A DNA stretch of 64,000 bases, from assembly GCF_016903815.1 (NCBI RefSeq), contig NZ_CP069973.1; one strand, given 5' to 3'. Position numbers and translations under genes: made by a program. This DNA is from Escherichia coli (lineage in GTDB: Bacteria; Pseudomonadota; Gammaproteobacteria; Enterobacterales; Enterobacteriaceae). How positions within the stretch are numbered: position 1 is the first letter of the stretch; every line of letters starts with the position of its first letter. Positions 29,936 through 56,496 of this stretch are shown piece after piece. A model generated the notes under the pieces. That model saw only the letters and a list, made by a program, of their open reading frames with translations, searched no databases and was not told the origin of the DNA.

Positions 29936-31345
29936 TCATTCTACCATGCAGGCGCGTAGCGACCAGTAGCGTAACGTGACGTCAGACTCACCCTGTAATA
30001 TCAGCGAAGCTGGATGATGGGGAAAATAACGATTACTCATTACACCTTCACCATTATTGATGAATATCTCTACGCTGGAACTGTCACAGAGAATCTTCAG
30101 TGACGTTACGCTTCCTCGCCAGTAACGAGTTAGTTTCTCTTGCCCTGCAAGGCTTCTCCTCTGTAGTTGAATACCATCGTCATTAAGATGCAGTGCCAGC
30201 GCATTGCCAAAATTCAGATACAGCTCACCCGACGGAATGATGTCCATTTCCAGGCGTTCAATTTCGACATGCGGCGCATGATCCGCTTTTCCTTGCCAGA
30301 AGTGTTCAGCTTCACGCAGTTGCGCGAGTTCCCTGATTGGCATCTGAAACAATTTTCCCTTCTGGAATGAGAGTTCGCGAAAACAGGTCATTTGATGCTG
30401 CCAATGATGCTTTCTGGTTGGCTGCAACATCTCTTCGCCATCAGGAACCCCCATCCAGCCGACCAGCAATCGTCGCCCGTCCGGGGCTTCCATCGTCTGT
30501 GGTGCATAGAATTCAAATCCCGCATCCAGCTCTGAGAAAGCGCCATGCGTAAATTTGCCTGTCTCGTAATCAAACTGTCCATGTAGCCAGGCGCAGGGAT
30601 AAGTATTCAGATAGCGCTCATGTTCGCGCACCATTCCCTGGGGGCAACAGAGGAGAATGTATTCACCATCAAGGGCGAAAAGATCAGGACATTCCCACAT
30701 GTATCCTGCGTTATCTATTTCATTCAGACCGTTACCAGCAATTTCTCCATGAAAAGACCAGGTATTCAGATCGACAGAGGAATACAGCAGCACTTTCCCC
30801 CGTTTCTCTTTATCTTGCGCGCCAAGCACCATGTACCATTGGCTGTTGTGCTTCCAGACTTTTGGATCACGAACATGTCCGGTGTAACCATCAGGTAACG
30901 ATATGACAGGGCCTAGTTTATCAAACCCGCCCTGGTTATTTTCGGTGGCCAGACATTGCCATGCCGTTCTGCTGCCATCATCAAACTTAACATTACCGGT
31001 ATAGCAAAGTGTGAGAACGCCCTGATTATTAACCGCGCTTCCTGAGTAACAACCATTACGGTCGTACTCTTTATCGGGCATTAGCGCTAATGGTTCATGC
31101 TGCCAGTGCAATAAATCCGTCGAACTCCAGTGCCCCCAACATTTGTACTTATGATCACAAGCCAGTGGATTCCACTGATAAAACAGATGATAGCGGCCTC
31201 CAGACCAGCAAAAGCCATTTGGATCGTTCATTAGTCCGGTGACGGGAGCGAGATGCCAACAAGGATAGTGGGCATCTGCCAGTGCTTTGGACTGACCTTT
31301 CATCACTGCCTGTAAAATCGCGGGCATTTGTGAAGGCATCGACAT
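29936..31345 (-). CDS. scrB: sucrose-6-phosphate hydrolase (GH32)
   Basis: GH32 motifs [15 protein letters not shown] and WECPD. Confidence 0.85.
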
Positions 31346-32715
31346 TACTCCTCGTCCGTTTTGTATTTGAATAATAAAGAGAGGCTAAAAGCGACAGCGA
31401 AAGCAATCACCATTCCAATAATATAATTAACCAACGATGTTGGCTGAACGATTGCCATGCCGGGTATTGCGGTCAGACCAACGGCAGTCATATAAACGTG
31501 AACAGAGACAACCCAGGCACCGCCGGCAGCGCCACCAATTAAGGCCGCAATAAAAGGTTTAACAAAACGAAGGTTGATACCAAAAATAGCGGCTTCAGTA
31601 ATCCCTAACATTGCGGAAAAGGCCGAGGGTAGGGTGATTGCTTTAATTTTTGTATCTTTGGTTTTAAACCATACCGCCAGACATGCACCGCCTTGCGCAA
31701 CGTTTGCCATTGCCCAAATAGGCAGCAGGAAATTAACACCGATTGCAGGGTTACCTAAAAGTCCTGCTTCAATTGCGTGGAAGCTATGATGAATACCCGT
31801 AATAACAATCGCTGAATATAGCCCGCCGAATAACAACCCTGCTAACCAGCCTGCGTGTGCAATCAGCGTGCTGAGAACGAAAGAGATACCGTCACCTAAC
31901 GCTCGTCCTGCCGGACCAATAATCAAAAGAGCGATAAAGCCAGAAATGACGACAGTCAGAAATGGCGTCAGAATGAGATCCAGAGCATCAGGGATAAACC
32001 TGCGTAACTGTTTTTCCACTATGCTCATAAACCATACTGCCAGAAGCACGGGGAAAACCGTTCCCTGATAGCCAATCATGGCGATTTCAAAACCGAAGAA
32101 GTTCATTGTCTGAAATCCCGCAGCAACGCCCCAGGCATTTGTGAGTGCCGGGTGAGTCAGAATCCCTCCTAATGTCGCGCCAAGATAAGGATTTCCACCA
32201 AATTCACGAGCAGCAGTAAAGCCAATAAGGATGGGGAGAATAATAAATGCGGCTGAACTGCACATATCCAGCAGGATATAAATCGCATTATCGGTATTCA
32301 CCCAGCCATATGTTTTCACCATTCCCAGAAGCCCCATTAATAAACCAGAAGCAACAATGGCTGGAATGATGGGGACAAAAATATTAGAAAGTAGCCGTGC
32401 TATTCGCTGAAAAGGATTGAGTTTTTGAGCGGCGAGTCGAGCGATATCTGCTTTACTGGATTCGCTAATACCTGCAACCTGAATAAAGGCAGCATAGACT
32501 TTATTAACCACGCCGGTGCCAAAGATAATTTGCATTTGCCCTGAATTACGAAAACAACCTTTCACTCCATCAATCTGGCCAATGGCATGTTGATCGGCAA
32601 GTGTGTCGTCAACCAGTACCAGCCGTAGGCGAGTGGCGCAATGTGCTGCACTGGCGATGTTCTCCTTACCACCTAATAAAGGAAGCAACGATTGGGCGAT
32701 TTTATCGAAATCCAT
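31345..32715 (-). CDS. scrA: PTS sucrose-specific EIIBC component
   Basis: EIIB motif AHCATRLRL then multi-TM EIIC. Confidence 0.85.
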   Translation of the reverse strand: MDFDKIAQSLLPLLGGKENIASAAHCATRLRLVLVDDTLADQHAIGQIDGVKGCFRNSGQMQIIFGTGVVNKVYAAFIQVAGISESSKADIARLAAQKLNPFQRIARLLSNIFVPIIPAIVASGLLMGLLGMVKTYGWVNTDNAIYILLDMCSSAAFIILPILIGFTAAREFGGNPYLGATLGGILTHPALTNAWGVAAGFQTMNFFGFEIAMIGYQGTVFPVLLAVWFMSIVEKQLRRFIPDALDLILTPFLTVVISGFIALLIIGPAGRALGDGISFVLSTLIAHAGWLAGLLFGGLYSAIVITGIHHSFHAIEAGLLGNPAIGVNFLLPIWAMANVAQGGACLAVWFKTKDTKIKAITLPSAFSAMLGITEAAIFGINLRFVKPFIAALIGGAAGGAWVVSVHVYMTAVGLTAIPGMAIVQPTSLVNYIIGMVIAFAVAFSLSLLFKYKTDEE

Positions 32716-32775: not shown

Positions 32776-34317
<1,542 letters not shown>

Positions 34318-34460
34318 TTATAAAAATTGCTAAAATGCTAAACCGGTTTAGGTGTTGATAATAAAGCTGACTTTTTAGCCAAAGCAATTATTTTCGCTAA
34401 ACCGATTTAGTAAATGTGACAGGCACGACAAATCGGGTTACAGATACAACAGCAGGATCA

Positions 34461-35381
34461 CTATTGTGAAGGGAGATCGTGTTGTCGGGGTAAGGCGGTC
34501 ATCGCGCCTTTAGCCGTGGTCGCCAGAGCACCACAAATCTGAGCTTGTACAATGATTCGTTCAAGCTGTCTGGTATTTGTTGGTATTCCAGAATCAGCCA
34601 GACCGGCAAGTAATCCAGCGACAAAAGCATCTCCTGCCCCGGTCGTATCGACGACAGAAACAGGTTTGGCGGGATAGTGGATAAACTGCCCCTGAAAATA
34701 CACAAGTACGCCATTTTTTCCTTGTGTGATAAGCAATAAAGTCAACGAATAACGTTGTACTAATGAATATGCGCCTTGCTGAACCTGGCTTTCGCCACTG
34801 ATGAATAGCAACTCTTCTTCGGACAATTTAGCGATATTCGCCAGCGAAAGTGCGCGATCAAGGTATTTCCTTAATAGCGCTTCACTCTGCCAGAGATCGC
34901 TGCGGATATTGGGATCAAAACTGATGTTTCCGCCAGCCTGACGTATTTTCTCCATAGCCAGAAATGCGGTACTTCGGGAAGGTTCTGCACTGAGCGCAAT
35001 GGAACAAAGATGGAGCCATTCACCCGGCCCAAATGCAGGAAGGCCATCAGGTTGTAAAAAAAGATCGGCACTTGGGCGTACCATAAAGGTAAAGTTTCTT
35101 TCTCCTTGCTCATCAAGTCCTACAGCCACAATTGAGGTGCGATGTTGAGGATCAAGAGACATATAACGTGTATCAACATTTTCTGTACTCAGTGTCTGAT
35201 ACATAAAGCGACCGAAAGGATCATCGCCAACTTTGCCAATAAAGGCACTTTTCCCCCCCAGCCTTGCGATACCGACTGCAACATTAGCAGGCGCCCCGCC
35301 AGGACACTGTAGTAGTCTCCCCTGGCTTTCGGGTAATAAATCAACAACCGCATCACCAAGTACCCATACTCTTGTGCTCAT
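34461..35381 (-). CDS. scrK: fructokinase (PfkB family)
   Basis: PfkB motifs GGAPANVAVG and DTTGAGDAFVAGLL. Confidence 0.85.
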   Translation of the reverse strand: MSTRVWVLGDAVVDLLPESQGRLLQCPGGAPANVAVGIARLGGKSAFIGKVGDDPFGRFMYQTLSTENVDTRYMSLDPQHRTSIVAVGLDEQGERNFTFMVRPSADLFLQPDGLPAFGPGEWLHLCSIALSAEPSRSTAFLAMEKIRQAGGNISFDPNIRSDLWQSEALLRKYLDRALSLANIAKLSEEELLFISGESQVQQGAYSLVQRYSLTLLLITQGKNGVLVYFQGQFIHYPAKPVSVVDTTGAGDAFVAGLLAGLADSGIPTNTRQLERIIVQAQICGALATTAKGAMTALPRQHDLPSQ

Positions 35382-35940
35382 AAAGGCTCCAATATACTAA
35401 TTGCTAAACTAATTAAATCGATTTAGCAATTAAAGCATAAACGCTGCTCAGGAGAGAACAATATTCATCAATAGTTACGTGGTATTTTGTTGTGAGAATA
35501 TGTCGGAAATATGGTAAGTGATGAGATAGTCTTCCCCCACCTTCACGACCGCTTTCAATTGCGCCATAGCGAATAAATTTTAACCACAAAAGTAAGAGAA
35601 AGGCCATGATTGAACAGAAAATTACCGACATCGCTCAGGCTAAAACGAACTTTTATCTTTTCAGTATCAATGCTCGTGGCAATCACGCGGGAAAGATCAA
35701 ACTTTCTCACAACCAACTGCTTAACTGGCTGGTATAACAGCCAAAATGACCGTTGCGATGAAGGCTTGCGGGACATCCCATCACTGCCCACAGGAAATAA
35801 GGGAACTCAACTATGATGTAATATTGCATCCAGCACAACATGTTAAATCTTATCAATGGCGTCAGAAAAATGATTATAACAACGCACAGCAATAGCTGAA
35901 ACCTATCAATATAGAACTATACGACTGGTACCAATAAAAA

Positions 35941-35972
35941 GTCTGGACCTACAGAACGTCCAGGCTTTTTTG
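35941..35972. terminator. bidirectional hairpin terminator
   Basis: aaaagtctggacctacagaacgtccaggcttttttg; plausibly the original terminator of the gene now interrupted by IS3. Confidence 0.45.
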
Positions 35973-36214
35973 AAAATGCATCGGTTGATCTCGATGGAAG
36001 GACACAACTGATAGATCATGTTCTTGGACTTCTTACTGAATACGGCATTGTGTTCAGTAAAAGCGCAACAGAATTACGCCCCAAATTACCGGCATTACTT
36101 GAGGATGCGGCGATGCTGTACCTGCGGATTGGTACATGCCGTCTGAACAATATGGCTCCAGAAAAATGGCTGTGAACCGCCCCGGGTTTCCTGGAGAGTG
36201 TTTTATCTGTGAAC

Positions 36215-37105
36215 TCAGGCTGCCAGATCATCGTTTCCGATGGAAGCATAATAAGCTTTTTCTGCTTCTGCCGGAGGAGTATGGCCCAGCCTTCCCAGCA
36301 ATCGTCGATTGTTATACCAGTCCACCCACGTTAGTGTGGCCAGTTCCACTTCTGCACGGTTTTTCCAGCTCTTACGGTGTATTACCTCCGCTTTGTAAAG
36401 ACCATTGATGCTCTCAGCCATCGCGTTGTCATACGAGTCGCCTGTACTCCCTGTTGATGCCAGTAATCCGGCTTCTTTTAGTCGCTCCGTATAGGCCAGT
36501 GACACATACTGAGAGCCTTTATCGCTGTGATGGATGGTGCCAGACGGACGACGGGCCCACAACGCCTGCTCCAGCGCATCCAGCACGAATGTCGTTTCCA
36601 TAGACGATGAGACCCGCCACCCCACGATGTATCCGGCAAACACATCAATGATAAACGCCACATAGACGAAGCCCTGCCATGTGCTGACGTAAGTAAAATC
36701 AGCCACCCACAGCTGGTCAGGTCGTTCTGCCACGAACTGACGGTTTACGCGGTCGCCTGCGGCAACGGCTTTCCGGCTGATGGTCGTACGGACCTTTTTA
36801 CCCCGGAGAACACCGGCAAGTCCCATAACCGCCATGAGACGTGCCACTGTACATCTGGCCACCCTGATTCCTTCCCGTAACAACTGACGCCAGACTTTAC
36901 GCACACCGTACACCTGATGATTTTCATCGTATACGCGCTGTATCTCTCTCTTCAGCCAGTCGTCGTGCTGCGCACGGGCACTGCGTTTATCCGGATGATG
37001 TCGCTGTTGCTGACAATGGTAATACGTTGACGGGGCAATATGCAGTTCGCTGCATACCGGTCCGACCCCGTACTGCTCACGCAGCTTATCCAGCAGTGGC
37101 ATCAT
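36215..37105 (-). CDS. insF: IS3 transposase OrfB (DDE integrase domain)
   Basis: 296-aa translation recognised as IS3 InsF. Confidence 0.85.
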
Positions 37106-37428
37106 TTTTTCCAGAGGCGGTCGAACTCCGCCTTCGCAAAATAAGCGGAAGCCTGGCGAAGGATATCGTTACTGCGGCGCAGTTCACGATTTTCACGTTC
37201 CAGCTCTTTCAGACGCTGACGTTCAGCGCTGGTGAGCCCACCATCACCGCCCCCGGTATCCCGCTCATGCTGGCGAACCCAGACACGCAGAGTCTCCGGC
37301 GTACAGCCAATCTTTGGAGCAATGGAACAAATTGCCGCCCACTGTGAGTCATATTCATCCTGACTTTCCAGAACCATACGAATCGCCCGCTGACGGACTT
37401 CGGGGGAAAAACGAGTATTTTTAGTCAT
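37102..37428 (-). CDS. insE: IS3 transposase OrfA (HTH)
   Basis: 108-aa translation [20 protein letters not shown]... recognised as IS3 InsE. Confidence 0.85.
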
Positions 37429-37453
37429 CCTGTTTACCTCTTTCTCAGGGAGT

Positions 37454-40400
37454 TTAGTCTCCAGGATTTCCGGGGCGGTTCAGCTGTTCATTAAAACGTT
37501 GTCCAGGCTGATCATAAAGTGCGCGTAATGTCTCCGCGGATGGCCGCGGTTGCATTTGCTGCATGCAGGGTTTCTGGTGGTAATCAAAATACTGTGGCAG
37601 ATGCTGGATCTCTGCTTTGTTTTCAATTACCCGTTGAAGGGCTCTTTGACGCAACTCTCTTGATGATTTGTCACGGATCGATTCCAATTGTAGCTGGCTG
37701 CCGCTACTAATTCGCTTACGAGCAGCATCAAAATCAAAGCGAATAGCCAATAGACTCGGCGTAGTCTCACTTAGCTGCAATTCCCCTAATTGCACTGATT
37801 CACGCTTATCTTTAATATAAACAATGATCTTATCATCAAGTTCAAAGCTGAGGTCAGCACCGGATTCCGTAGTATATGGGTAGAGTAAGCAACCACTCGG
37901 TGATTCCTGAAAGTCAGTAGAGTCGATGTTGACTATATCTCGTAGGTCTACTTCTGTATCAGATAATGCCTGCCATAACTCAATTGGGCTTGACTCACTA
38001 CTATCGAAGTCATCTTCATCCATCTCTTGATTAGGATTAGCTCGCTCAATGATGGCATCAATTACTGGCTCGAGGTTAAACAGTAGTTCAATAAAAGTAT
38101 TACGCTGATTAAGTGAGCCACGTTGTAATGAAAGTTGAGTATTAATTTTAGCCTGGGAATATTTACCAGCCTTTATACTTTCTTCGATCGATAATCCTTT
38201 TTCATACACTATTCTATTAATAGTGCGATTATCAGGATCTAAGTCTATCAATAGCCGCTCTCCTAGGCCAGTGATGTAACAACGCAATTCATGCGCAAAG
38301 CGTGGGTTAGATGACCAGTTACATTGAAAATAATAGATCCCATCATTTTGTTCTAGAAGCTTCACTTCTTGCGGCCAATCATCTGTGCCCCAGCAAACAG
38401 GAATTACCTTATCCTGTGACTCAGACGCCACAACTTGATTAATCTCAGCTTGTTCCGGTGCTCGAATTGACTGCAGCAAAGGATCGAGCGCGATAGGTAT
38501 ACCGTCAACGGTTTGTTTTGCGCGTTCTAGCTCAGCCTGCACCAGTACTGGCATATCTTCACTAAATAGCTCCTCCACCATACGATATACTGCAAAGCAA
38601 TCTCGCCCAAAAGCATCAGTACTTTCGGGATTCTCTGGCTGGTAGCGATTATCTGCAGTTAATTCATCACTGAATTCAAGCAATCCAATCAGAGTAATTA
38701 CTGTCTGCTCCCCGACTTGTACCAGCAGTTTCTCTGGGCAAAGATCTCCATGAGGTAACTGCTTTTCATGAAAAGCATGAATGGTGTTGATCAACTTTTC
38801 CGCAATTGTAAAACGTTGGGATTGTACTAACACGTTCTCAGCAATAAACTGTGACCACGGTAGGCCATCCACATACTCGCTCACTACATACAAGCCGCCT
38901 TGTCCTAATAGTCCATAGGACTGCACCTTAGGAGTTGGCAGATTTATATGCGTAAGCTTATCGATCCGTTGCTTAAAAGCGTGGATACGGCGGTTAACAC
39001 CAGGTTGTTGAGGGGTCAAAATAACACCATCCCACAATTTTACCTGCAGAGCTTTCCCACCTTGTTCACAGTGATAACTGATGCTGCCAGTCGTAGCAAT
39101 AGCAGCAAGAGCAGAGTAAACCATAGACAACTGTTCAGGAAGTGGAGGAAACTCAATTAACACACCAACGCTGTTCATCCCTTCGCGAAAGAATTTGTTT
39201 TGCTTTAATTCTTGATAAATCTGGTTAGCTTCATCAAATTCTTGGCTATGTTCCTTAGTAGCTGCATTAAACTCATTGAGCATTATGTCCGCACGTGGAA
39301 AGCGTTTACTTGGCTCAAGGTTAAGAGCTTGCTCAAACCAGCTATTTAGAATACCGCTAAAAGGATCAGTTAATGGAGCTCTCCATTCAGGCATCTGTCC
39401 AGGAGTCAGTAATGATTCACCTGCAAAACAAATACGATAAGCAATTACAGCCAACATGAATACATCTAGGCGATAGGGCTCAACTGCTTCTTCAAAAGCA
39501 TCTTCGGGCAAAATATATGGAGCACTTTGCAATGTCGGACGCAATGACTCTAGGCTATTATGTCCCTCCAGTGAGGCTGCGCCAAAGCCAGTAACGACAA
39601 TGCTCTTCTGATCCCCTGCGTACCATAGATTGTGCGGGTCAATATCACAATGACTGATACCCAAGCTATGTAATTCCGAGAATGGAGCTAATAATGCACG
39701 AACGCGATCAATACGCTCAGATTTACTCCATCCGTCAGCTTCGCTATCTAGAATCTCATCTAATCGGCTAAAACTACGGCGTAACTCATACAGCTCACGG
39801 GCATCATCAGTTATATCCTCCTCGGATAGTTCCCTTACAGCACGCAACATATAATCCTGCATAGTTGCGCTGCCATGACGAACTAGGCGACCGACTCGAG
39901 TCTCACGCAGAGCTATCTCAGCCCACAATGTTTGCATTGCGTTTGCTACACCCAAGGCATCAAAGTTCCACTGCCGTAGCAGACCTCTGTGTTGACTATT
40001 GTCTTTGTGGGTAGCCCTGAATTCGTTGTAGACCATGTGAGGGTGACTAAAGAATGGCTTATCGTTCGCAAGATAACCGCTTTCTTTTAGTGGCAAAGGC
40101 CTGACTTTTGGTCCTTCAAAGAAGGACTTAATTATAGGTAATGCCTCATCAGAATTTGGTCGAGGCTTTCCCCCTTCAAAAAGATGAAAAAAGTTAGTGT
40201 GTTGCACCAGCTTTTCGTAATTTTTTGGGTTACCTATAGTCAAGAATTCATCACGGGTATGAACATAGCGCCTCTCACTTAATGGCAAGTTTTCAGGACC
40301 AGCTGTGCCACACAGCACTACATGAGCCTCAACATGCAAAAAGTAACCCAGCTTACGAGATAACTCTTCCTGCAACAAATCTTTTAGTCGCAGTGCATGC

Positions 40401-40678
40401 TCACGCTTGATCTGATAGGGACTTTTGCCTCGTGACTTACCATTTTGCAGCCACTTCCCCCCTTCAAATGTGATGTTACCATTCCACTCTTTAAGCTCGA
40501 CTAATAGCAGACGGTCAGCAGTAATAATTAGCATATCGATTTCCATCGACCCTTGGCTATCAGTAACAACTAAGCCAGCATAGCCAAACCAACTATCTGG
40601 TAACTGCTTAACCATCATATCAACTGTTTTGGTTTCGCTGCGGTGCAGGCCAGCACCACCTACTATCTGATACTTCAC
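37454..40678 (-). CDS. 1074-aa protein with N-terminal NERD-like nuclease domain and two protein-kinase-like regions; 3' end runs into IS3
   Basis: NERD-like motif [21 protein letters not shown]; kinase catalytic-loop-like motifs [10 protein letters not shown] and [10 protein letters not shown]; last about 9 codons and stop lie inside the IS3 inverted repeat. Confidence 0.7.
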
Positions 40679-42594: not shown

Positions 42595-43480
42595 ATGAAT
42601 ATCCGTATCTGGAGTGGTATACTCCCCTGTATGGATATCTCCGCTCTCAACACCACGAATGACATCGAAAAACTGCGTGCTATGGCACTTACCATGGTAC
42701 AAAAAGTCATGTCGGAGAATGCCGAAAAAGAGCGGGAATTACTGGAGAAAAGCCGGCGCATCCAGCTTCTGGAAGAAATGCTGAAACTGGTTCGTCAACA
42801 GCGCTTCGGTAAAAAATGTGAAACGCTGGCTGGTATGCAACGCTCCCTGTTCGAAGAGGATGTTGATGTCGATATCGCCGCGCTTACCGCACATCTGGAT
42901 AAACTGCTCCCGCAATCCCCTGAAGAAGACGAAAAAGCGTCCCGTTCACGCCCGATACGCAAACCCTTACCGGCTCATCTTCCACGGGTGGAAAAAATTA
43001 TCCAGCCGGACACTGACCATTGCCCTGAATGTGACGAGCCGCTGCACTATATCCGTGATGCGGTGAGTGAAAAGCTGGAGTATATTCCCGTTCACTTCGT
43101 GGTGAACCGTTATGTCCGTCCGCAATACAGTTGTTCCTGTTGCCAGAAGGTGTTCAGCGGTGAAATGCCGGCACATATCCTCCCGAAAAGTGCCGTTGAG
43201 CCATCAGTCATCGCACAGGTGATCATCAATAAATACGGTGACCACCTGCCTCTGTATCGCCAGCAACAGGTCTTTGCCCGTTCAGTGTCGGGCTGCCCGT
43301 CAGTTCGATGGCTGACATGGTTGGCGCGGCGGGTGCCGCATTATCTCCCCTGGCGGCGTTACTCCATCGCGAGTTGATAAACCGTCCGGTGGTGCATGCA
43401 GATGAGACTACCCTGAAGATCCTGAACACTAAGAAAGGCGGTAAATCCTGCTCCGGTTATCTGTGGGCAACCAGCCTTCC
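42595..43480 (+). pseudogene. IS66-family transposase (TnpC), frameshifted and 3'-truncated
   Basis: Zn-ribbon CPECDEPL ... CSCCQKV, then HADETTLKILN in another frame; homology ends near 43480. Confidence 0.65.
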
Positions 43481-44274
43481 GCCTCGTCCGGATCCGCTGT
43501 TTCCAGTGTCATCAGGAGCCGGCTGCATGCTTCCCCTGCCGTTTTACCCAGCGTGGCCCGCTGCGAAAGACGGATGCGGTTTCCGGCACCCAGCCCACTG
43601 CGGTTATCGATATGGACCTTAACCGGATCGGGTTCGGTGATAAGTGCGCGGGTATCCGGTGCCAGCAGACTCACCAGAGCCCGGATGCCTTCAGCATTGC
43701 GGGTGGGTAATCGCATGGCACCCAGTAAGGCCAGGAAACGGGAAACCGGCGTTGCCACCTGTTCAGCGGTGCCGGGTATACCGAGTCCGACCAGTCCCAG
43801 CAGACACTGCGATGTGGCATCGCGCCCCCCCTCCTCGAAAGTGGCCGGATACGCATATTTTCGCCAGATCCGGTAGTACTGGGTGGTGATGCGGTGGCTG
43901 AAAATATCCAGAAATGAGGTGAGCGCCTCATGTCCTTCACGGCGCTGCGCAATATCATCCAGCCAGGACGTCGGCAGAGGTGAGTCCACCCCATACATTC
44001 CGAGAAATGTCGTGCGGATCGTTGGGGGTAATGTCGGACGGTCTTCGTCGATCTCCACCGCTTTCAGGGTGCTGACCGGGAATCCCATCCCGGGCCAGGG
44101 CCTGAATCGCACCGGGTCATCGCCCGGATGGCTGGTCGTGCCCAGTTTTGGCCCGTCCGGATTTTCCAGCTCCAGCAGCTGGCAGAAACGATAAAAACTG
44201 GCCCGCCAGATATCGTTGTTAAGGGCCAGGGCCTGCGTCAGCCCGGTACGTGCTGGCTGTGATTCTCTTTTCAT
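43429..44274 (-). CDS. tssG: type VI secretion baseplate protein TssG, C-terminally truncated
   Basis: N-terminal FYRFCQLLELE...DPVRFRPWPGMGFPVS pattern of TssG; abuts IS66 remnant. Confidence 0.6.
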   Translation of the reverse strand: MKRESQPARTGLTQALALNNDIWRASFYRFCQLLELENPDGPKLGTTSHPGDDPVRFRPWPGMGFPVSTLKAVEIDEDRPTLPPTIRTTFLGMYGVDSPLPTSWLDDIAQRREGHEALTSFLDIFSHRITTQYYRIWRKYAYPATFEEGGRDATSQCLLGLVGLGIPGTAEQVATPVSRFLALLGAMRLPTRNAEGIRALVSLLAPDTRALITEPDPVKVHIDNRSGLGAGNRIRLSQRATLGKTAGEACSRLLMTLETADPDEAEGWLPTDNRSRIYRLS

Positions 44275-45929
44275 CTCAGTCGTTTCCCTGTGGGTTGCAG
44301 TACCAGTGTGAGCTGGTTGAAAAGGTGAACATCAGCATAGAGCGCAAAGAAACGGTGCAGCATCTCCCCGAAGAGATTCACATCGCCCTCGCCGGCAAAA
44401 TTATCCATATTCAGCGTGACCTCAATGTCCACGCCACGGAGCATAAAGCCCTTTTCAAAACGGCGGATCAGGGTGTGCTTCACAGCAACGATGGCTTCAA
44501 GCCGGCGGCGGTTCATTTCATCGTCGGTCCAGTCATAGAGCGCCAGCGTCCCCCGCAGCACCTCCGGATTGTCCATCATGCTGAGAAAGTTTGATCCGAG
44601 GTGACTCATCACCCGCCAGTGAAACCGGTCATTTGCCGGGGGATACAGTGGCATCGTCGGTGCGGTCAGGTTCAGGACTCTGACGGGGACTTTGCCGGTT
44701 TTGACCACCCTGTCCAGGAGCGTACTTTCCAGCGCCCTGCGCGGAAGCTGCCCGTTGGTCGCGGTGATTCGCATCGAGAGGGACTCCGGTTTATCGGACA
44801 ACTGCTCCAGCTCGAACGAACGCCCCCCGAGAACTAACCATGTGTCATACAGGCCGGAGGGTCCCCGTTTCACACGGGTGTGGTAATAACGTTCAGGAGC
44901 ATCGTGGCGCATCATACCGCCCCGGTGCCGGAAGCTGGTGAACGGGACATAAGGGTGTCTGCCGTTCTTCACCGAGCCGTGAATGTTATCGACGCTGTAA
45001 ATTTCGGTGTGACCATCCTGAAGACGCAGCGGCCTGAGCAGGTACTCGTTATCCAGCGGGTTAAGGATCAGCGGGTCGGCTTCCAGGGTAAAGAGATTGA
45101 TAACCGGCGCACAGTGCAGGCGGAAGTTTTCTGTCTCAAAAGGCAAACCGGATGACCAGGCTTCACTGAGCACAATGTCGATTTCAAACCAGGTACTGGC
45201 CGCAGTGAGCCCAATGGTGTCGAGGCCGCGCAGTTCAACAAACATAAACTTCGGACGGAAGCTGAAATACTCCAGCAGCAACTGGTAACCACTGAAGGCT
45301 GTATCAGCTTTCTTCCACAGGCAGTCATTGTCGTCAAAGCCCATGGGTCTGCACCAGCCGTCAAACTGACGACGTCCGGTATATGTCCCGGCATGACGCG
45401 CATACATGGCATGTACACGCCGGGTCATTGCCAGATGTAGCGCAGCACTTACCGGCGCCTCTGCGTTAAGAAAAATGGCGACTTTGTCGATCCCGGCTTT
45501 ACTCCAGTCCACTTTTTCAGGGCATTCGAAGCGCAGACGGATAGCAGAGCGGCCATCGGATTCAGTATGGAGACGGGCATCTGCAAGGTGCAGCGGTTGT
45601 AGCAACACATCGCGGGTCGCCCGGTACTGGCAGGCGGTTTTATGCGGCCCGACAGGACGGGACAGAACGGAAAAGCCTTCAGCCAGTATTTCGGCCTGAC
45701 GCAGACTACGCCAGTCAGGCGAGAACTCAACGATGGCCAGCGACGGGATAGTCCGCATATAGTGCGGCCACAGCAGACTCACCAGACCTTCGGTGAGCTC
45801 CGGCAGGTCATCATCCAGCTTTTCACGCAAACGTCCCATCAGGAAGGCAAAGCCTTCAAACAGACGTTCCACACTGGGATCGCAGGCACCAGGCTTATCC
45901 AGATTCAGCATTGCTGACGTAATCCACAT
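44271..45929 (-). CDS. tssF: type VI secretion baseplate protein TssF (N-terminus possibly frameshifted)
   Basis: VERLFEGFAFLMGRLREKLDDDLPELTEGLVSLLWPHYMRTIPSLAIVEF pattern of TssF; upstream 73-aa ORF is in a different frame. Confidence 0.6.
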   Translation of the reverse strand: MWITSAMLNLDKPGACDPSVERLFEGFAFLMGRLREKLDDDLPELTEGLVSLLWPHYMRTIPSLAIVEFSPDWRSLRQAEILAEGFSVLSRPVGPHKTACQYRATRDVLLQPLHLADARLHTESDGRSAIRLRFECPEKVDWSKAGIDKVAIFLNAEAPVSAALHLAMTRRVHAMYARHAGTYTGRRQFDGWCRPMGFDDNDCLWKKADTAFSGYQLLLEYFSFRPKFMFVELRGLDTIGLTAASTWFEIDIVLSEAWSSGLPFETENFRLHCAPVINLFTLEADPLILNPLDNEYLLRPLRLQDGHTEIYSVDNIHGSVKNGRHPYVPFTSFRHRGGMMRHDAPERYYHTRVKRGPSGLYDTWLVLGGRSFELEQLSDKPESLSMRITATNGQLPRRALESTLLDRVVKTGKVPVRVLNLTAPTMPLYPPANDRFHWRVMSHLGSNFLSMMDNPEVLRGTLALYDWTDDEMNRRRLEAIVAVKHTLIRRFEKGFMLRGVDIEVTLNMDNFAGEGDVNLFGEMLHRFFALYADVHLFNQLTLVLQPTGKRLR

Positions 45930-48068: not shown

Positions 48069-48635
48069 TCAGAAGTGAGGCTTACGAGGACGCCCTGCAG
48101 CAGGTCGTTCAGGAACTTCACTGCAACCGTATGCGCACAGTCCGTCTTTTTGCTCTTCTTTCGCCAGATAATGCAGGACACCGCGAATATTATCGATGCT
48201 CCCGGGATCGTTATGACGCACGGGAATGTTGATGTTGTATGTATAATGCGGCTGATATGTACAGCGGTGTGCCGAACCGCTGTTATGCGTAATAGACTGC
48301 CAGCATTCCGTAATCCGCTCCGCAAAGGGATATATTTTTTTAACCCTCTGACGATCGAGCCAGAAAACCGCATGCGCATGAAAACCATGATCAGCCGTCC
48401 ATTCAATCACCCAGAAGAAACCAACGATATTTTCAAATTGTTCCACCTGCTCCAGCAGCATACGCAACTGCAATTCAAGCCAGCGATGATCAGGTTGTAA
48501 GAAATCAGGCGTATCTTTCCTGTAGAAGAAATCCATGCGTAAGGCCCGCAGGCGGGAATAGCGTGCGACCAACTGATTGATGTGATTGTCAAGTAAAGCG
48601 GTAAAAAACCAGTTTGGTGTGTAAGATTTAGGCAT
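48069..48635 (-). CDS. inovirus Gp2-like (YagK/YfjJ family) protein
   Basis: LRALRMDFFYRKD ... FHAHAVFWLDRQ motifs. Confidence 0.65.
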   Translation of the reverse strand: MPKSYTPNWFFTALLDNHINQLVARYSRLRALRMDFFYRKDTPDFLQPDHRWLELQLRMLLEQVEQFENIVGFFWVIEWTADHGFHAHAVFWLDRQRVKKIYPFAERITECWQSITHNSGSAHRCTYQPHYTYNINIPVRHNDPGSIDNIRGVLHYLAKEEQKDGLCAYGCSEVPERPAAGRPRKPHF

Positions 48636-50179
48636 GCTGATGACTCCTGAAAGTTAATGACGTTTTAAGTGCTGTAAACGAATTAATGCTTTCGCTCATA
48701 ATCAGATCTAAAACGGTAATAACTTACAGACGGTATTTATCAGGCATGCTGTAACAGAATGGATACGTCGGTTATTAACGACACACAGCGTTGTGCTGAA
48801 GGGTATGAGTTATCTGATGGCATTGTCTATAGAGATGAGATAAACGAGGTGCGAAGAAAATACAGATTCAATACAACACAGTGAAATACAGAAAAATACG
48901 AACTGTAATCCCGCTGCCAGGCGGTTAGGAAACATATTACAACTATAAGCTCATGGTTTGTAAATTTGCTCTCAGTGAGTCTGAAAAAACGTTTATAAGG
49001 TCACCACAATAAACTCACACGCGCTTATTCAATCTGTTCTCCAGGATATGAACGTTAACGACACACGATAGCATAAGACAACATACAATGGATGAATAAT
49101 TTTCACCCAGTACCTTAAACAATACAACCGGCAACAAATATAATCAGAAATTCACTCTGTTAATTCTGTTGTTTATCCTGCGCTGTTAAACATGACGGAA
49201 CCATGGATACCTTATCAAAGAGTAAGCATTCAGTTAATCAGTAATGACAGAGAAATTGATGTTCACCAGAATAGTTAAAACACTTCAGATAAACAATCAT
49301 TGTTAAGCAAATACGGTTCATAATGGATAAATTAGAATCAATTACTGTTTTACTGAAGATGAGAATAGATGAATATCAACAATAGCGTAGTAGAGAATAA
49401 CTTACCTGAACATCATATGAGTTACAGTAGTTATGATTGAGGGATGGAGTGAATACGATAACAAGAGTAATACTAATGGAATGTGTAAAGATTGAGAGTG
49501 AGTGAAGACAGGAAGTAAATAACAATAGAGATTGTATGAAAAAGGGAGTGAATAAAGAATATATAAAGAATAAATATAATTATAGTAATAAACCTAAATT
49601 AAAATCATCCTTGTTTGATGAGTAAAAATAATTCTAGAAAATGAATCTGTCTGAAAACTCTTTCTCAGAGATTAACCGATCAGATGCTCAACGGACTCAA
49701 TAAATTGGCTGAGTCAGGTTACCTCATCCACACTCTATTTGTTTCTAGAAGGATCTACCATTTTGTTCATCTACCGGAACACATCAATTTAGTAACTCGA
49801 TAATATCGGTTATGTAGATATTTATCGTTGCTACCAATGCCTAGATTATTATTCTCCAAGTATTTTCTTGACTTACAGGCTAATTTTGAAACAAATGTCA
49901 TGCTATTTTAGGAAAAGAACCTATGCAAAAGTCTGCTATGAGCGAGGAGCAGATATTCATCTGGTATACAAAGACAATATCGCTTAAGTCATCAGTGCTG
50001 CCACTTTAACCACTAGCTCTGCTCTTTTTGGACTTTTGAGCTAAAAATTAAATCTGACAGTGTGATAAGGTGCAAGTTTCTGAAAATACGCCAGTTGTTT
50101 TACACTCAAAAGCCCCCATTACTATCTGATGTTAATGGCGCAGCAGTTATCTTTCAGATTATTAAGGGGAAACAAGAGT

Positions 50180-50884
50180 ATGGCAAGATGTACAGCTCCT
50201 GTACGTGGACATAGCTCAGCAGCAGCTGCTGCTGCCTGTCCCGCATGTCGTAATCGCAGTGGTTATCGCCGCAGTAGCTACAGTTATGATAGTTACCCTT
50301 CTTACTCATCAGGCTCTAGCGGTGGCGGAAGTTATGGAGGCAGTAGCGGTGGTTCCAGCAGCAGCGCGAAGCCACGTTGGTCAAAATCAGGGTCTTCCGT
50401 TTCTTACACAACAGCCCAAGTACAATCACTCACACCAATTCGACAAGCGGTAGAGAAACTTGCCATTGAGCAACCTGATCTGCGTGATGTCTTTCTTTGC
50501 CATGCTTGGGATGACCGACAAGGTATTGCCAAAGAGTTACACGATTTGCTCGAAGCGGCAGGTGTCAAAGTATGGTTCAGCGAAAAGGATCTTGCCCTTG
50601 GTGTTCCGATGATGCGTGCCATTGATAAAGGATTAGCAAACTCTCGAATCGGCTTGGTTTTAGTGACACCTGCATTGTTAAACCGTCTTCCTAAAGAAGG
50701 CGTTGCTGATAAAGAACTTTCCGCCTTACTGGCAGGCAACCAACTCGTTCCCATCGTGCATAACACGACGTATGAAGCTCTCCGTAATGTCAGTCCTTTG
50801 CTTGCATCCCGAAGCGGCCTCGACACGGGAGAAGATACATTGGCAGTTGTTGCAACAAAAATTGCAGAGCTGATCACTGTTTAG
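50180..50884 (+). CDS. TIR-domain protein with Ser/Gly/Tyr-rich low-complexity N-terminus
   Basis: RBS aagggga then ATG; TIR-like motifs DVFLCHAWDD, VWFSEKDLALG, SRIGLVLVTPALL. Confidence 0.7.
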   Translation: MARCTAPVRGHSSAAAAAACPACRNRSGYRRSSYSYDSYPSYSSGSSGGGSYGGSSGGSSSSAKPRWSKSGSSVSYTTAQVQSLTPIRQAVEKLAIEQPDLRDVFLCHAWDDRQGIAKELHDLLEAAGVKVWFSEKDLALGVPMMRAIDKGLANSRIGLVLVTPALLNRLPKEGVADKELSALLAGNQLVPIVHNTTYEALRNVSPLLASRSGLDTGEDTLAVVATKIAELITV

Positions 50885-51307
50885 TTTATCCAAGCCACCG
50901 TTAAATATTTCCAGCTCATGAATCTGGTCTGCTATTGCAGGCCAGATATCAGTCAATACTGAAAGGTTTGACCTGCTCCCCGTTGATTAACATAGACTGA
51001 TATAGCAACTTCCGCTTTTGGCACAAAGCAGACCATGAGAAGATAGACGCTATAACATTTGAGTCCTACCAATCGATCTGTTCATTTCCATAAATGGCAG
51101 TAAATGCAAATAACCAGAACAGCCAGGCGCTTTTCGACTTATGGTCGATGTTGCAAAGAGTGAGGAGTGGAAAGCAAGCGTGCGAACGAAAGTAGATGGC
51201 AATCCATTGCATTACTTCAGGACGACTTTTCAGAAAGCGAGCTAAGGGCGTCAGCCAACGCCCTTACCGTGGCATAAGCTCAGGCACCGGATGCCGTTTT
51301 ACAGGGC

Positions 51308-52039
51308 TCACCTGCCATCCAGTAAACGCCCCGGCCCACGACTGCAACCATAATTACGTTGACCAGAACCGTCATGCTGCTTCGTCTCATACTTCACGAG
51401 ATAACAGGCTCTCTCCATGGCTTTCTGCATCGCTTCCACATCACCACGCTTGACCCAGAGCACAGCGGATCCACCAGATTTTTTGTCAGAAGCTTTCCGG
51501 GTATCAGAACATCCACCCGACAAAGGCGTATCATCGGAAGAAGGGCGAGCATCAGATGATGCCGGTTTACGGAAAGGCGTCCGCCTGGAAAAATGAACCA
51601 GTCCATTACCCTGCCAGGGTTCAAGATGCAGAGCGCTACACCATGCCAGCTTGATCAGCGTCGCCAGCGAAGAAGGAACGGTGAAATCCCCTAGCGAGCA
51701 CCAGGTATCTTTGTTGAGCAGTAATATCACGTGATAATGTTTCCTGCCTTTTTCCTTGCCAAACTCCCGACACCAGAAATAACGCAGAGTGGTTGCACGC
51801 ACACGCTTGTTGGCACGTCGTTTATGTCGCTGGTAAGCCTGAATTTTTGCTTTCAGGGATTCGAAAAAACGAGAAATCACCGCTGAATCCGAATCGGGAT
51901 CCATGATGGTGACAGGCATATACTCAGGGAAACGTAAATCCATCCGGATTAACGAGACGACACGGTGTTGCGCCAGGGCACTGTTGAGAATACTTTCAAA
52001 ACGGGATAACCAGTAAGCATTGTGTATTGGTTGATTCAT
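51308..52039 (-). CDS. inovirus Gp2-like (YagK/YfjJ family) protein
   Basis: VSLIRMDLRFPEY ... HYHVILLLNKD motifs. Confidence 0.65.
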   Translation of the reverse strand: MNQPIHNAYWLSRFESILNSALAQHRVVSLIRMDLRFPEYMPVTIMDPDSDSAVISRFFESLKAKIQAYQRHKRRANKRVRATTLRYFWCREFGKEKGRKHYHVILLLNKDTWCSLGDFTVPSSLATLIKLAWCSALHLEPWQGNGLVHFSRRTPFRKPASSDARPSSDDTPLSGGCSDTRKASDKKSGGSAVLWVKRGDVEAMQKAMERACYLVKYETKQHDGSGQRNYGCSRGPGRLLDGR

Positions 52040-52883
52040 GATGAGAGATCTCCGTTGATTTGGATTGACTTCACATCATTAATCACCGCGGTAAAACTTT
52101 ACGGCATCCCGCCATTGAGCAACGCCAATGGCTCCTGATTAAAACAGAATGAATCCCCCACGAAGAAAAAATAAACCTACACGCAGAGTAAAACACACAA
52201 CAACGGCATAAATGGTTTTTAAAAACTACAAAGCCTGAAGGGAAACGGATCCACAGAACGTGCAAACAAAACACCAAAAACGCAATCAGAACGCTTTCTG
52301 CTGCTGTGAATCAACAACAATACCAAAACCTACAGCTTAACCACAAAACTCAATCACAGAGCCGAATAGCGTGTTTAAAACCTGTTTACAGATAACCCTG
52401 CCACAAGAACAAAGTTCACCAATATCAGAATCGATTTTCTCATCCTGAAAATGTTACGTTTCACTACACAGCATAAAAACGATTAACTATTGATAACGTA
52501 AACCTCATCTGAATCAAAACACCAGAACCAATCATCACGCTTTTCCTGAAAAGAGCCTTGCGCTGAGAAAAAACACCAGGGTCAGTTAATCATCTCATCA
52601 ATCTCATCGTTACAAAAACATCCATAAAACCATTTAACAAAATCATCGTAAGCACACAGTAAATCACGCCAGGTTATCTCAGCCAAATTTTCGTTTTACA
52701 TAAAGACACTTGTCTCAGGTTAACGACTAAAAACACAAAAACTCAGAAAAGGTTAAACGTAACTTCAGAAAAATAGAATATCATATTGATTGCTTAAACA
52801 GGAAAGATTGTTTTGTAGTAGCATTAAGCTGATTTTAGTTAACGTAAAAACAGGACTGACAGGTTTACTAAACTGGATGTGTA

Positions 52884-53100
52884 TCAGACAAAGCAATGTG
52901 TATAACAATACTTAATGAAAACACTTGTAGAATTGTTTATGAAAATACGTGTATGTCTGGTAAAACACTTAGTAGAAAATACGTGTATAACACTTACTGA
53001 AATGCTTAGTAAAAATACTTAGTAAAATATGTGTAGAATTATCTATTTAAAAAGATATGTATATAACACTTAATAAAAACATGTGTATATAGTATCATAC
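52884..53100. repeat. iteron-like array of degenerate direct repeats in AT-rich intergenic DNA
   Basis: Recurring GTGTATAACA(A/C)T..A.TGAAAA and TGTAGAATT.T.TAT..AAAA units, 2-3 copies each. Confidence 0.4.
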
Positions 53101-53730
53101 CGACATTCTCAACATCTTCAGACTTCCATACATACTGGGTGTTGATTTCTCACTTTTACAGCCAGCATGGAGTTTTCTGTCCTAAAAACAGAGCAGATTT
53201 ACTCTGGAATTATTTTTCTACCCCCGTATTTCAGGCCCCAGAAAAGACAATCCGAAGCAAACCGTTTGTCAGCCTCCATATCATCTTTTACCCCCGGAAA
53301 GTGATCGCGTTTACAACCAGAATGACAGCCATACTGATTATGTCGTCTCCCGGCCCCCTTCACATATAACATGCATGTCTGTCATTGCTTACTGCTCCAC
53401 ATGACCGGATTTCACATACAGGATGCACATTCAGTGTTTTTATCGCTACTATAACAGACAGATTACTGTCGTCTTTACTCTTCAGATTGTTAATCTGACC
53501 ACAAGAACAGCCGAACGGCAAAACGCCCTCCACAAGGGGCACATGAACCATAGTTGATAGCATGTTTTTCCTAATCAAGGAATAGTTCAGGAATATTTTA
53601 TTGCATTAATAACTGGCGAATAATCGTTCTGTGAACACAAAATGCTTTTATTTGTAAATTTTATTGCATTGCACTCGTTTTATTGATATGGGGTTTAATA
53701 ACAGATAACCCGGAAAGAAGGAGAAAACAG

Positions 53731-55611: not shown

Positions 55612-56496
55612 ATGTCATTCAGCCATTCTTCCCTCTCTGCACAAGTGAAATCATATCTGACGTTTCTTCCTGAAGAAATTCGCCAGAAAATCCTTGAACA
55701 TCTCCACGGTGTTATTCATTACGAGCCCGTGATTGGCATTATGGGTAAATCCGGCACAGGCAAAAGCAGCCTGTGTAATGCCATTTTTCAGTCCCGTATC
55801 TGCGCCACGCATCCCCTGAACGGCTGCACCCGCCAGGCTCATCGTCTTACCCTGCAGCTCGGTGAACGCAGAATGACGCTGGTCGATCTGCCCGGCATTG
55901 GTGAAACACCGCAGCATGATCAGGAATACCGGACACTTTATCGTCAGCTGCTACCGGAACTGGATCTGATTATCTGGATCCTACGGGCTGATGAACGTGC
56001 GTATGCTGCCGATATTGCCATGCATCAGTTTTTACTGAATGAAGGTGCAGATCCCTCGCGTTTTCTGTTTGTTCTCAGCCATGCCGATCGCGTGTTTCCT
56101 GCTGAAGAATGGAACGACACAGAAAAATGCCCGTCCCGTCAGCAGGCGCTCTCACTGGCGACGGTGACAGCCCGGGTGGCAACCCTGTTCCCTTCATCAT
56201 TTCCGGTACTCTCCGTTGCTGCACCTGTCGGCTGGAACCTTCCGGCGTTTGTGTCGCTGATGATCCACGCACTGCCACCACAGGCAACCAGCGCGGTGTA
56301 TTCACATATCCGGGGAGAAAACCGCTCTGAACAGGCCCAGAAACACGCACAACAGACTTTTGGTGACGCCATCGGGAAAAGCTTTGACGCTGCCGTTGTC
56401 CGGTTCAGTTTTCCGGCCTGGATGTTACAGCTTCTCCGTAAAGCCCGGGACCGCATTATCCACCTGCTGGTCACACTGTGGGATCGTCTGTTCTGA
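55612..56496 (+). CDS. YeeP/YkfA/YfjP-family GTPase
   Basis: P-loop GIMGKSGTGKSS; CP4-type backbone position. Confidence 0.8.
   Translation: MSFSHSSLSAQVKSYLTFLPEEIRQKILEHLHGVIHYEPVIGIMGKSGTGKSSLCNAIFQSRICATHPLNGCTRQAHRLTLQLGERRMTLVDLPGIGETPQHDQEYRTLYRQLLPELDLIIWILRADERAYAADIAMHQFLLNEGADPSRFLFVLSHADRVFPAEEWNDTEKCPSRQQALSLATVTARVATLFPSSFPVLSVAAPVGWNLPAFVSLMIHALPPQATSAVYSHIRGENRSEQAQKHAQQTFGDAIGKSFDAAVVRFSFPAWMLQLLRKARDRIIHLLVTLWDRLF

Follow-up and report, generated by a model that had tools for sequence, protein, structure and literature searches.

Stand-alone TIR proteins have been demonstrated to act as phage defences in Escherichia coli. Wang et al. 2024 (PMC11350192) cloned 32 clusters of E. 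coli TIR proteins, of which 12 were active, and three of these 12, TIR-V and TIR-VI as well as TIR-IX, each consist of one protein whose TIR domain is C-terminal. They need the TIR active site for phage protection and respond to portal or tail-fibre proteins of phages as triggers (PMC11350192). A role in virulence was described for another such protein, TcpYI (Norenberg et al. 2013, Int J Med Microbiol 303:583, as summarised in PMC4810146 and PMC7646307). According to the summary in PMC4810146, TcpYI was introduced in 2013 as a TIR-containing virulence protein encoded in a phe-tRNA island and was reported to increase both survival in macrophages and the bacterial load in mouse spleen. Here, we report on an ortholog of TcpYI encoded on the plus strand at positions 50180-50884 of a 64-kb stretch of E. 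coli DNA (contig NZ_CP069973.1; the whole stretch is referred to as the window). The explanation that we favour, and to which we give roughly an even chance, is that this gene encodes a self-contained, NAD+-cleaving TIR defence protein of the bacterial Tcp clade that acts as a single gene.

The active site of TIR domains forms only on self-association, across subunit interfaces, as in SARM1, AbTir, ThsB and plant TIRs. The TIR-only proteins of plants and the TIR domain of SARM1 are reportedly activated by condensation or a phase transition.

Identification of the E. coli protein as an ortholog of TcpYI

The open reading frame (ORF) is intact and translates into 234 amino acids followed by a stop codon; its RefSeq record is WP_001389195.1. 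The window matches E. coli strain 222 (NZ_CP020516.1, minus strand) at 100% identity. Among the homologs is P0058 (ABS46609.1), a "putative lipoprotein" of 233 amino acids from Yersinia pseudotuberculosis IP31758, which is 81% identical to the E. coli protein at 100% coverage. Residues 1-92 of P0058 have a molecular mass of 9.46 kDa, an isoelectric point of 10.15, an instability index of 79.08 and a grand average of hydropathicity of -0.695, and contain 1 acidic and 9 basic residues as well as 10 Ala, 8 Arg and 5 Asn. The values tabulated for N-TcpYI (1-92) in PMC7646307 are exactly the same. P0058 agrees exactly with what was published in six physicochemical values and in three residue counts and is therefore TcpYI, and the E. 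coli protein is an ortholog thereof. The literature searched contained no analysis of TcpYI with respect to enzymatic activity, phages or integrons.

The gene is therefore not of a new kind: it is annotated as a TIR gene, its ortholog has been published, a full-length PADLOC model exists for it (see below) and single-protein TIR defence has been shown in E. coli, all of which lowers its novelty. The following features of the family seem to be unreported in the literature searched: its conservation across phyla, an invariant Cys/His knuckle, a low-complexity region that is conserved in composition only, and carriage on integron cassettes.

TIR fold and catalytic glutamate

The initial annotation, which had been made from the sequence alone, proposed a TIR-like C-terminus behind a low-complexity N-terminus with a CxxC element. 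Both parts hold up. The motifs on which the TIR assignment was based were found at residues 103-112 (DVFLCHAWDD), 131-141 (VWFSEKDLALG) and 155-167 (SRIGLVLVTPALL), and profile and structure searches support it well beyond what chance would give. Pfam TIR_2 matches residues 104-197 with an E value of 4.6e-15, and a sequence search of the PDB returned PdTIR (3h16), TcpB/BtpA (4lzp, 4lqc, 4c7m), BtTir (7uxr) and AbTir (7uwg, 7uxu, 8g83) with E values of 1e-13 to 1e-15. An AlphaFold2 (AF2) model was built from 74 homologs and has a mean predicted local distance difference test score (pLDDT) of 74. Comparison of this model to the PDB using Foldseek gave a probability of 1.00 for many TIR structures, with 4lqc, 3h16, 4c7m, 7uxr and 7uwg as the best matches (28-30% identity, target-normalised TM-scores of 0.77-0.87), the score on TcpB/PdTIR being about 0.85. 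Structures of the TcpB/PdTIR/AbTir type outranked the TIR domains of animals, plants, SARM1 and SPARTA, and there was no solved ThsB structure among the fold matches listed. Within the family, the mean pairwise identity of the TIR domain is 81%.

The catalytic glutamate, which had been named as the residue to check, is present as E179 in the motif A-D-K-E-L. D177, K178, E179 and L180 are invariant in the 74 sequences, and an L-INS-i alignment sets E179 opposite the Glu of WPAREL in TcpB and of WPQKEL in PdTIR (W-P-x-[RK]-E-L). Unlike L-INS-i, pairwise alignments by HMMER set the Glu of TcpB and PdTIR opposite G174/V175. E173 was considered as the catalytic residue and rejected, as it is not invariant (Ala in Rhizobium) and as L-INS-i aligns the invariant E179 with the catalytic Glu. 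Given the fold and this residue, we consider it plausible that the protein cleaves NAD+.

N-terminal module

The N-terminal part consists of three segments, the coordinates of which are given in Table 1. In the first of these, residues C4, T5, A6, P7, G10, H11, C20, P21 and C23 are invariant in the 74 sequences from several phyla. The CxxC element noted initially is CPAC at residues 20-23, and C4, H11, C20 and C23 together probably form a zinc-binding knuckle. This segment has a pLDDT of 66-79 and a mean pairwise identity of 72%. It is followed by the low-complexity stretch, whose Ser/Gly/Tyr-rich run spans residues 31-62 and in which residues 28-64 are predicted to be disordered (pLDDT below 50). 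Across the family, this stretch measures 26-41 amino acids and is composed of 39% S, 24% G, 13.5% Y and 7% R at a mean pairwise identity of just 41%, i.e. its composition is kept and its sequence is not. The net charge of the first 100 residues is always basic, ranging from +4 to +12. The linker that leads to the TIR domain has a mean pairwise identity of 64% and contains the invariant residues W67, S72 and Y76; the helix that follows it at residues 78-97 (pLDDT of about 88) aligns with the one preceding the TIR domain in the BtpA construct 4lzp.

When residues 1-100 were used as a query, only fragments of the same family were returned and no fusion to other domains was found. The PDB contained no relative of the N-terminal module, all matches being to Gly/Ser linkers. 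The label "lipoprotein" of some Yersinia records was rejected, as the sequence has neither a signal peptide nor a lipobox before Cys4. More distant members of the family, at 35-55% identity, still have both the knuckle and the W/Y linker. P0281 (236 amino acids, 35% identical), which is one of them, retains these two features, and its TIR region has lost F-L-C-H-A-W-D-D and A-D-K-E-L; it may thus be a catalytically dead derivative.

Absence of a conserved partner gene

The initial annotation had seen no obvious partner for the gene. We clustered 3,492 ORFs located within 6 kb on either side of the gene in 88 loci by all-against-all BLASTP, and there was no conserved neighbour in these 88 loci, the clusters shared between them being shadow ORFs only; neither was a partner found in the window. 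The largest cluster of true neighbours, found at varying places in 8 loci, probably consists of transposase- or integrase-like proteins. The genomic contexts differ wholly among Pseudomonas, Vogesella, Yersinia, Gallionellales, Pectobacterium and Klebsiella, and the DNA homology between loci stops exactly at the ends of the ORF. The absence of a partner recorded at the outset thus extends to these 88 loci.

Three candidate partners were rejected. A small upstream ORF occurs in a few alpha- and betaproteobacteria only and has no family match; like the B12-dependent ribonucleotide reductase NrdJ, it was judged to be lineage-specific or coincidental. In Pectobacterium, a gene for a DUF4238 protein follows the TIR gene after 218 bp in the same orientation (L099:6911-7900, given as locus:positions), and this pairing is absent from the other loci; DUF4238 is mentioned in one E. 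coli TIR system of Wang et al. 2024 (PMC11350192). With regard to ribonucleotide reductase, one cluster of large proteins lies 0.2-3.3 kb from the TIR gene in five loci (L048:1495-5172, L069:647-4291, L078:2323-6129, L024:3798-6716 and L056:4996-7146), two members of which (those in L048 and in L078) match vitamin-B12-dependent ribonucleotide reductase, and in Vogesella a ribonucleotide reductase small subunit is encoded about 1 kb from the TIR gene (L004:9776-10855). This proximity could be due to an insertion hotspot or to coincidence. Frequent neighbours of a defence type in the loci of the family are GmrSD with SNIPE, McrA-type HNH proteins, NERD, DUF2726 and Ymh proteins, and AAA_15/21 with DUF4238.

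These neighbourhoods bear on an alternative explanation, according to which the protein is an orphan signal generator of the Thoeris type that would produce a cyclic ADP-ribose (cADPR) or histidine-ADP-ribose messenger for an effector, ThsA-like or other, encoded elsewhere. The PADLOC "ThsB" model PDLC00424 covers residues 1-233 of the 234 residues (E = 2.7e-128) and is the best PADLOC match, there is a weak NCBIfam match to the type III Thoeris TIR protein, ThsB homologs are known in integron cassettes (bioRxiv 10.1101/2024.07.02.601719) and Thoeris types I and II occur in E. coli (PMC11350192). Since the match to PDLC00424 is end to end, the odd N-terminus included, this model describes this very family. 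An adjacent ThsA effector was found in none of the 88 loci, and the annotation of the 64-kb window contains neither ThsA nor names of SIR2, SLOG or Macro proteins. In addition, a specific effector cannot be expected in each host of a cassette that moves between phyla by itself, and the top fold matches are TcpB, PdTIR and AbTir. Taken together, we consider an orphan Thoeris function unlikely, and these data are more in line with a protein that is complete by itself.

Mobility of the gene

Many copies of the family in environmental bacteria are integron cassettes. In many loci, an upstream half-site GTTAGAGCGCAT or GTTAGAAC is located 35-65 nt before the ATG, and its reverse complement, ATGCGCTCTAAC or GTTCTAAC, opens an attC-like element 5-40 nt past the stop codon that ends with a GTTAGGC-type sequence. 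A perfect complementary pair of 8-mers at the cassette ends was found in 9 of 74 loci, as compared to 0.73 expected from mismatched pairs (maximum of 3 in 200 permutations), and about 6 more loci have imperfect pairs. Arrays of short cassettes flank the gene in L052, L077, L014 and L058. In L077 (465 bits) and L052 (473 bits), the strand opposite to the arrays encodes an integron integrase (TIGR02249, cut-off 265) upstream of them. The regions concerned in these two loci are L077:5773-10800 and L052:2641-10723; the gene was also seen in such arrays in L014, L058, L067, L055, L037, L027, L031 and L024, and the cassette ends in integron arrays carrying the gene show the complementary sequences GTTAGAGC and GCTCTAAC. 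For TIR proteins in general, an occurrence on metagenomic integron cassettes has been noted (PMC11089894), and integron cassettes encode phage-defence systems that are also found outside integrons without attC (bioRxiv 10.1101/2024.07.02.601719).

The E. coli copy has no attC signature, the best GTTRRRY/RYYYAAC-type pair of ends matching at 7 of 12 bases, and no integron integrase nearby, the window annotation containing a CP4-type integrase at the tRNA only. The gene is located in a tRNA-associated genomic island, as reported for TcpYI, namely a CP4-like pheV island bounded by tRNA-Phe and a CP4-type integrase at about 2898-4433 of the window. Its neighbours belong to the YagK/YfjJ and inovirus-Gp2 families. 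The proposed location in a variable slot between Gp2-family genes of a CP4-type element could be substantiated: in strain EA7 (L091:3774-5378), a YfjI-family gene takes the place of the TIR gene between the two Gp2-type genes, which means that the slot exchanges its cargo. The left flanking gene is conserved in about 1,900 E. coli genomes whether or not the TIR gene is present, and the flanking backbone is common to about 1,930 genomes, just 90 of which have the TIR arrangement.

In total, 109 of 5,426 complete E. coli genomes (about 2%) carry the gene, which is at least 99% identical in 95 of the 109, and all 25 records listed for E. coli carriers annotate an intact TIR-protein coding sequence. 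Strain AW1.7 has a copy of 92-94% identity (L092:5252-5953), which lies beside cbtA/yeeU and near setC where a different CP4-like island ends; this mirrors the arrangement in Yersinia. Homologs with about 95% protein and about 85% DNA identity are carried by at least 124 Klebsiella plasmids; the one on a conjugative IncFIB/IncFII plasmid of Klebsiella pneumoniae (L090:6001-6705) adjoins a DUF1778/GNAT toxin-antitoxin pair and has no partner. Carriage by phages was not observed, i.e. there was no full-length homolog in 50,697 phage records. The gene thus travels as single-gene cargo in integrons, at the edges of CP4-like islands (E. coli, Yersinia) and on IncF plasmids (Klebsiella).

Conservation across phyla and selection

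A scan of one genome per species revealed relatives encoded in at least 465 genomes, the best 80 of which are 63-100% identical over essentially the full length. Among these best 80 are Alpha-, Beta- and Gammaproteobacteria, Desulfobacterota, Myxococcota, Bdellovibrionota, the actinomycete Aldersonia, Bacteroidota (Chitinophaga, Pedobacter) and Bacillota (Paenibacillus, Brevibacillus, Lysinibacillus, Ornithinibacillus). Protein identity across at least five phyla is 63-87%. Synonymous divergence (dS) ranges from 0.87 to saturation and nonsynonymous divergence (dN) from 0.03 to 0.27, resulting in dN/dS ratios of about 0.02-0.09, and the GC content at third codon positions of the gene varies from 0.15 to 0.78. 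The family is under strong purifying selection. A mobile gene of an accessory or defence type would not usually be conserved to this degree.

This distribution has to be set against the published function of TcpYI. As a virulence factor of the TcpC/TcpB/TcpYI type, the protein would, by its TIR domain, contact or enter the cells of an animal host and dampen Toll-like-receptor/MyD88 signalling or deplete host NAD+. The orthology to TcpYI, with the effects on survival and spleen load reported in the summary of PMC4810146, and the location in a phe-tRNA island, as for tcpYI, are in line with such a role, and several of the carriers listed come from humans or birds, among them one isolated from urine and avian pathogenic E. 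coli strains. Proteins of 63-80% identity are, however, encoded by free-living nitrifiers, methanotrophs and magnetotactic bacteria, by soil Bacillota, by Bacteroidota and in groundwater metagenomes, neither a secretion system nor a chaperone is conserved next to the gene in the 88 loci, and purifying selection is equally strong in non-pathogens. For these reasons, an effect on animal cells would be at most a secondary use, and we regard virulence as quite an improbable main function. The phylogenetic spread and the conservation of the family argue, in turn, against the published reading of TcpYI as a virulence factor.

Conservation to such an extreme is reminiscent of proteins whose targets are universal in cells. 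It would fit a selfish or housekeeping-like, NAD-linked function for the mobile element that has nothing to do with phages, for example as a growth-arrest toxin that stabilises arrays and islands or as a stress regulator in NAD signalling. Toxin-antitoxin genes are indeed found as neighbours, namely CbtA/YeeU in Yersinia and AW1.7, DUF1778/GNAT in Klebsiella and CcdAB in Pectobacterium, and ribonucleotide reductase genes are near the TIR gene in five or six loci. Against this, no cognate antitoxin or immunity gene accompanies the TIR gene in the 88 loci and each of the adjacent toxin-antitoxin pairs is complete in itself. We therefore see only a small chance for a function of this type and prefer a role in defence.

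Gene boundaries and expression signals

All homologs start with M-x-x-C-T-A-P, and the DNA similarity to other loci begins at 50180 and ends at 50884, which fixes the start codon at 50180 and rules out a longer ORF from 50129 as the gene. The strong ribosome-binding site that had been assumed is represented by AAGGGG at 50164-50169, 10 nt before the ATG. Scans of the surroundings of the gene for promoters and terminators gave results at or below the expectation from shuffled sequences, and the stem-loop downstream of the gene (Table 1) was not called by the terminator scan. A conserved regulatory RNA or 5' untranslated region was rejected, since the flanking DNA is conserved over about 20-130 nt only and in subsets of loci only. 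The Rfam search near the gene returned only a sub-threshold match to PhotoRC-I inside the neighbouring Gp2 ORF (51549-51616, minus strand; 24 bits at a gathering score of 45), which is almost certainly due to chance.

Table 1 Features of the TIR gene and its surroundings; positions are those of the window.
Feature	Position	Strand	Basis and remarks
TIR-protein coding sequence (WP_001389195.1), TcpYI ortholog	50180..50884	+	ORF translation, RefSeq, homology
Shine-Dalgarno sequence AAGGGG	50164..50169	+	10 nt before ATG; read from sequence
Residues 1-27, knuckle M-x-x-C-T-A-P-x-x-G-H-(x8)-C-P-x-C	50180..50260	+	Invariant columns, 74 sequences
Residues 28-62, Ser/Gly/Tyr/Arg-rich low-complexity stretch with repeated [S/G]-Y-[S/G]	50261..50365	+	pLDDT, composition
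Residues 63-99, linker (KPRWS..GSSVSYT), then pre-TIR helix (residues 78-97)	50366..50476	+	Invariant columns, AF2
Residues 100-234, TIR domain of TcpB/PdTIR/AbTir type	50477..50881	+	Pfam, PDB, Foldseek
Glu179 (GAA codon), putative catalytic Glu (A-D-K-E-L)	50714..50716	+	Invariance, L-INS-i alignment
11-bp stem-loop without U-tract	50922..50947	+	RNA fold; 38 nt past stop; 3' end of segment common with AW1.7
Module of about 1 kb: gene with about 245 nt upstream and 63 nt downstream	49935..50947	+	92% identity with AW1.7
Left flank, YagK/YfjJ (inovirus Gp2-type) protein	48069..48635	-	RefSeq; island backbone, not partner
Right flank, inovirus Gp2 family protein	51308..52039	-	RefSeq; island backbone, not partner

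Other features of the island

Neither of the flanking Gp2-type genes has a match in PADLOC. Among the neighbouring ORFs of the window, the only significant PADLOC match is a weak and partial one to LeoBC (E = 1.6e-6) in a GTPase-family protein of the CP4 module (YeeP-like, 55612-56496). The stretches at 48636-50179 and 52040-53682, about 1.5 kb each, go down to 28% GC and are devoid of ORFs of more than 50 amino acids and of Rfam matches; the left one belongs, up to about 49450, to an island backbone conserved among about 1,900 E. coli genomes. At 34173-40678, a gene for an AAA-domain protein of 1,652 amino acids (WP_000877066.1) overlaps by one base with one for a hypothetical protein of 515 amino acids (WP_001294844.1), and the two could be a large two-gene system of a defence type. 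At 43429-45929 and 31061-32569, truncated pseudogenes of the type VI secretion genes tssG and tssF are found beside IS66 fragments, with a group II intron reverse transcriptase (ltrA) further upstream. Together with integrase pseudogenes, these remnants characterise the island as a mosaic of decayed elements.

Discussion

For the E. coli window itself, the finding is largely ordinary: an annotated TIR gene, orthologous to a published protein, in a known type of island. In our favoured explanation, namely one-gene defence by NAD+ cleavage, a trigger would cause the N-terminal module to gather the TIR domains, with the basic Cys/His knuckle and the [S/G]-Y-[S/G]-rich region controlling self-association. 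The assembled enzyme would then cleave or cyclise NAD+, and the output would be either a depletion of NAD+ that starves the infected cell or the emission of a product of the cADPR type. The gene would thereby act in abortive infection or, more generally, against invaders.

Several points weigh against this explanation. As many as 20 of the 32 E. coli TIR clusters were inactive against 111 phages (PMC11350192), and the cluster of this gene may be among those 20; given the presence of the gene in about 2% of E. coli genomes, that study probably cloned its cluster, which is likely to have comprised more than 10 members. The sole phenotype published for the TcpYI family is, as far as the summary in PMC4810146 goes, virulence in mice and macrophages and not phage defence. 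Four residues before the catalytic Glu, the family has Val or Ile as compared to Trp in TcpB, PdTIR and AbTir, and the chemistry or the product may therefore differ from those of the latter proteins. Strong conservation across phyla is atypical of phage sensors, which usually diversify. Finally, the promoter scan found no sigma-70 consensus promoter on the plus strand upstream of the gene, and the flanks are AT-rich and ORF-poor (28-36% GC), given which the E. coli copy may be silenced.

The last of these points can be taken further, in that the gene would be a silent or decaying passenger in E. coli with no current function. The AT-rich flanks, the lack of a consensus promoter or terminator and the degraded surroundings (pseudogenes of tssF/tssG and of integrases, IS66) are what one would expect of such a passenger. 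It is difficult to reconcile, however, with an ORF that is intact in all records listed and nearly identical in most carriers, with the dN/dS ratio of the family and with a good ribosome-binding site, so that we consider it highly improbable.

The extent of the conservation can also be read in a more far-reaching way, which we put forward tentatively and consider to be on the unlikely side: the family would be among the most conserved mobile immune genes, a host-independent, one-protein TIR "grenade" with a generic physical trigger that is read by the N-terminal module, rather than a diversifying sensor of phage proteins. The zinc knuckle and the FUS-like region would bind nucleic acid associated with an invader or respond to the state of the cell, and condensation or filament formation would then assemble the TIR active sites. 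This would explain why only the composition of the low-complexity region is conserved, why no partner is needed and how the protein could function after transfer into at least five phyla at dN/dS ratios of about 0.02-0.09.

A TIR system of 234 amino acids that does without a partner could reveal in what way the assembly of an NADase is controlled by a zinc knuckle at the N-terminus and by a prion-like low-complexity region, a question that links the biology of bacterial, plant and SARM1 TIR domains. The family is therefore a good minimal model for the switching on of TIR NADases. It also adds a TIR gene to the growing evidence for integrons as libraries of defence genes, from which this cassette has escaped into islands and Klebsiella IncF plasmids, i.e. 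to clinically relevant carriers.

Comparison with known systems

TcpYI shares with the E. coli protein its full-length identity of 81%, the same architecture of knuckle, low-complexity stretch, linker and TIR domain, and the phe-tRNA island; it differs in that it comes from another species and another position in the island and was read as a virulence factor. The best matches in sequence and structure beyond the family are TcpB/BtpA, PdTIR, AbTir and BtTir, with which the protein has the motifs F-[IL]-[SC]-H-A, W-[FY]-[SD] and x-[KR]-E-L and a pre-TIR helix in common. Their N-termini, however, are long coiled coils instead of a knuckle and an S/G/Y-rich stretch, the TcpYI family is far more conserved, and their Trp before the catalytic Glu is replaced by Val or Ile.

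From the ThsB proteins of Thoeris types I-IV, to which it is similar as a TIR protein covered by a PADLOC ThsB model and with which it would share a role in sensing infection and a chemistry based on NAD+, the protein is set apart by the lack of an adjacent ThsA or other effector in the 88 loci and by its closest structures, which are of the Tcp type and not ThsB. The integron cassettes termed BRiCs (bioRxiv 10.1101/2024.07.02.601719) show the same pattern as the family, i.e. compact defence genes as cassettes with homologs outside integrons without attC; ThsB-like BRiCs are two-gene cassettes, whereas the TcpYI family consists of a single gene, the E. coli copy of which is without an attC signature.

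[quoted passage not shown] With the TIR-only proteins of plants and the TIR domain of SARM1 it would have in common that activity depends on high local concentration or self-assembly, the difference being that the E. coli protein carries its own FUS-like [S/G]-Y-[S/G] region, by which condensation may be brought about.

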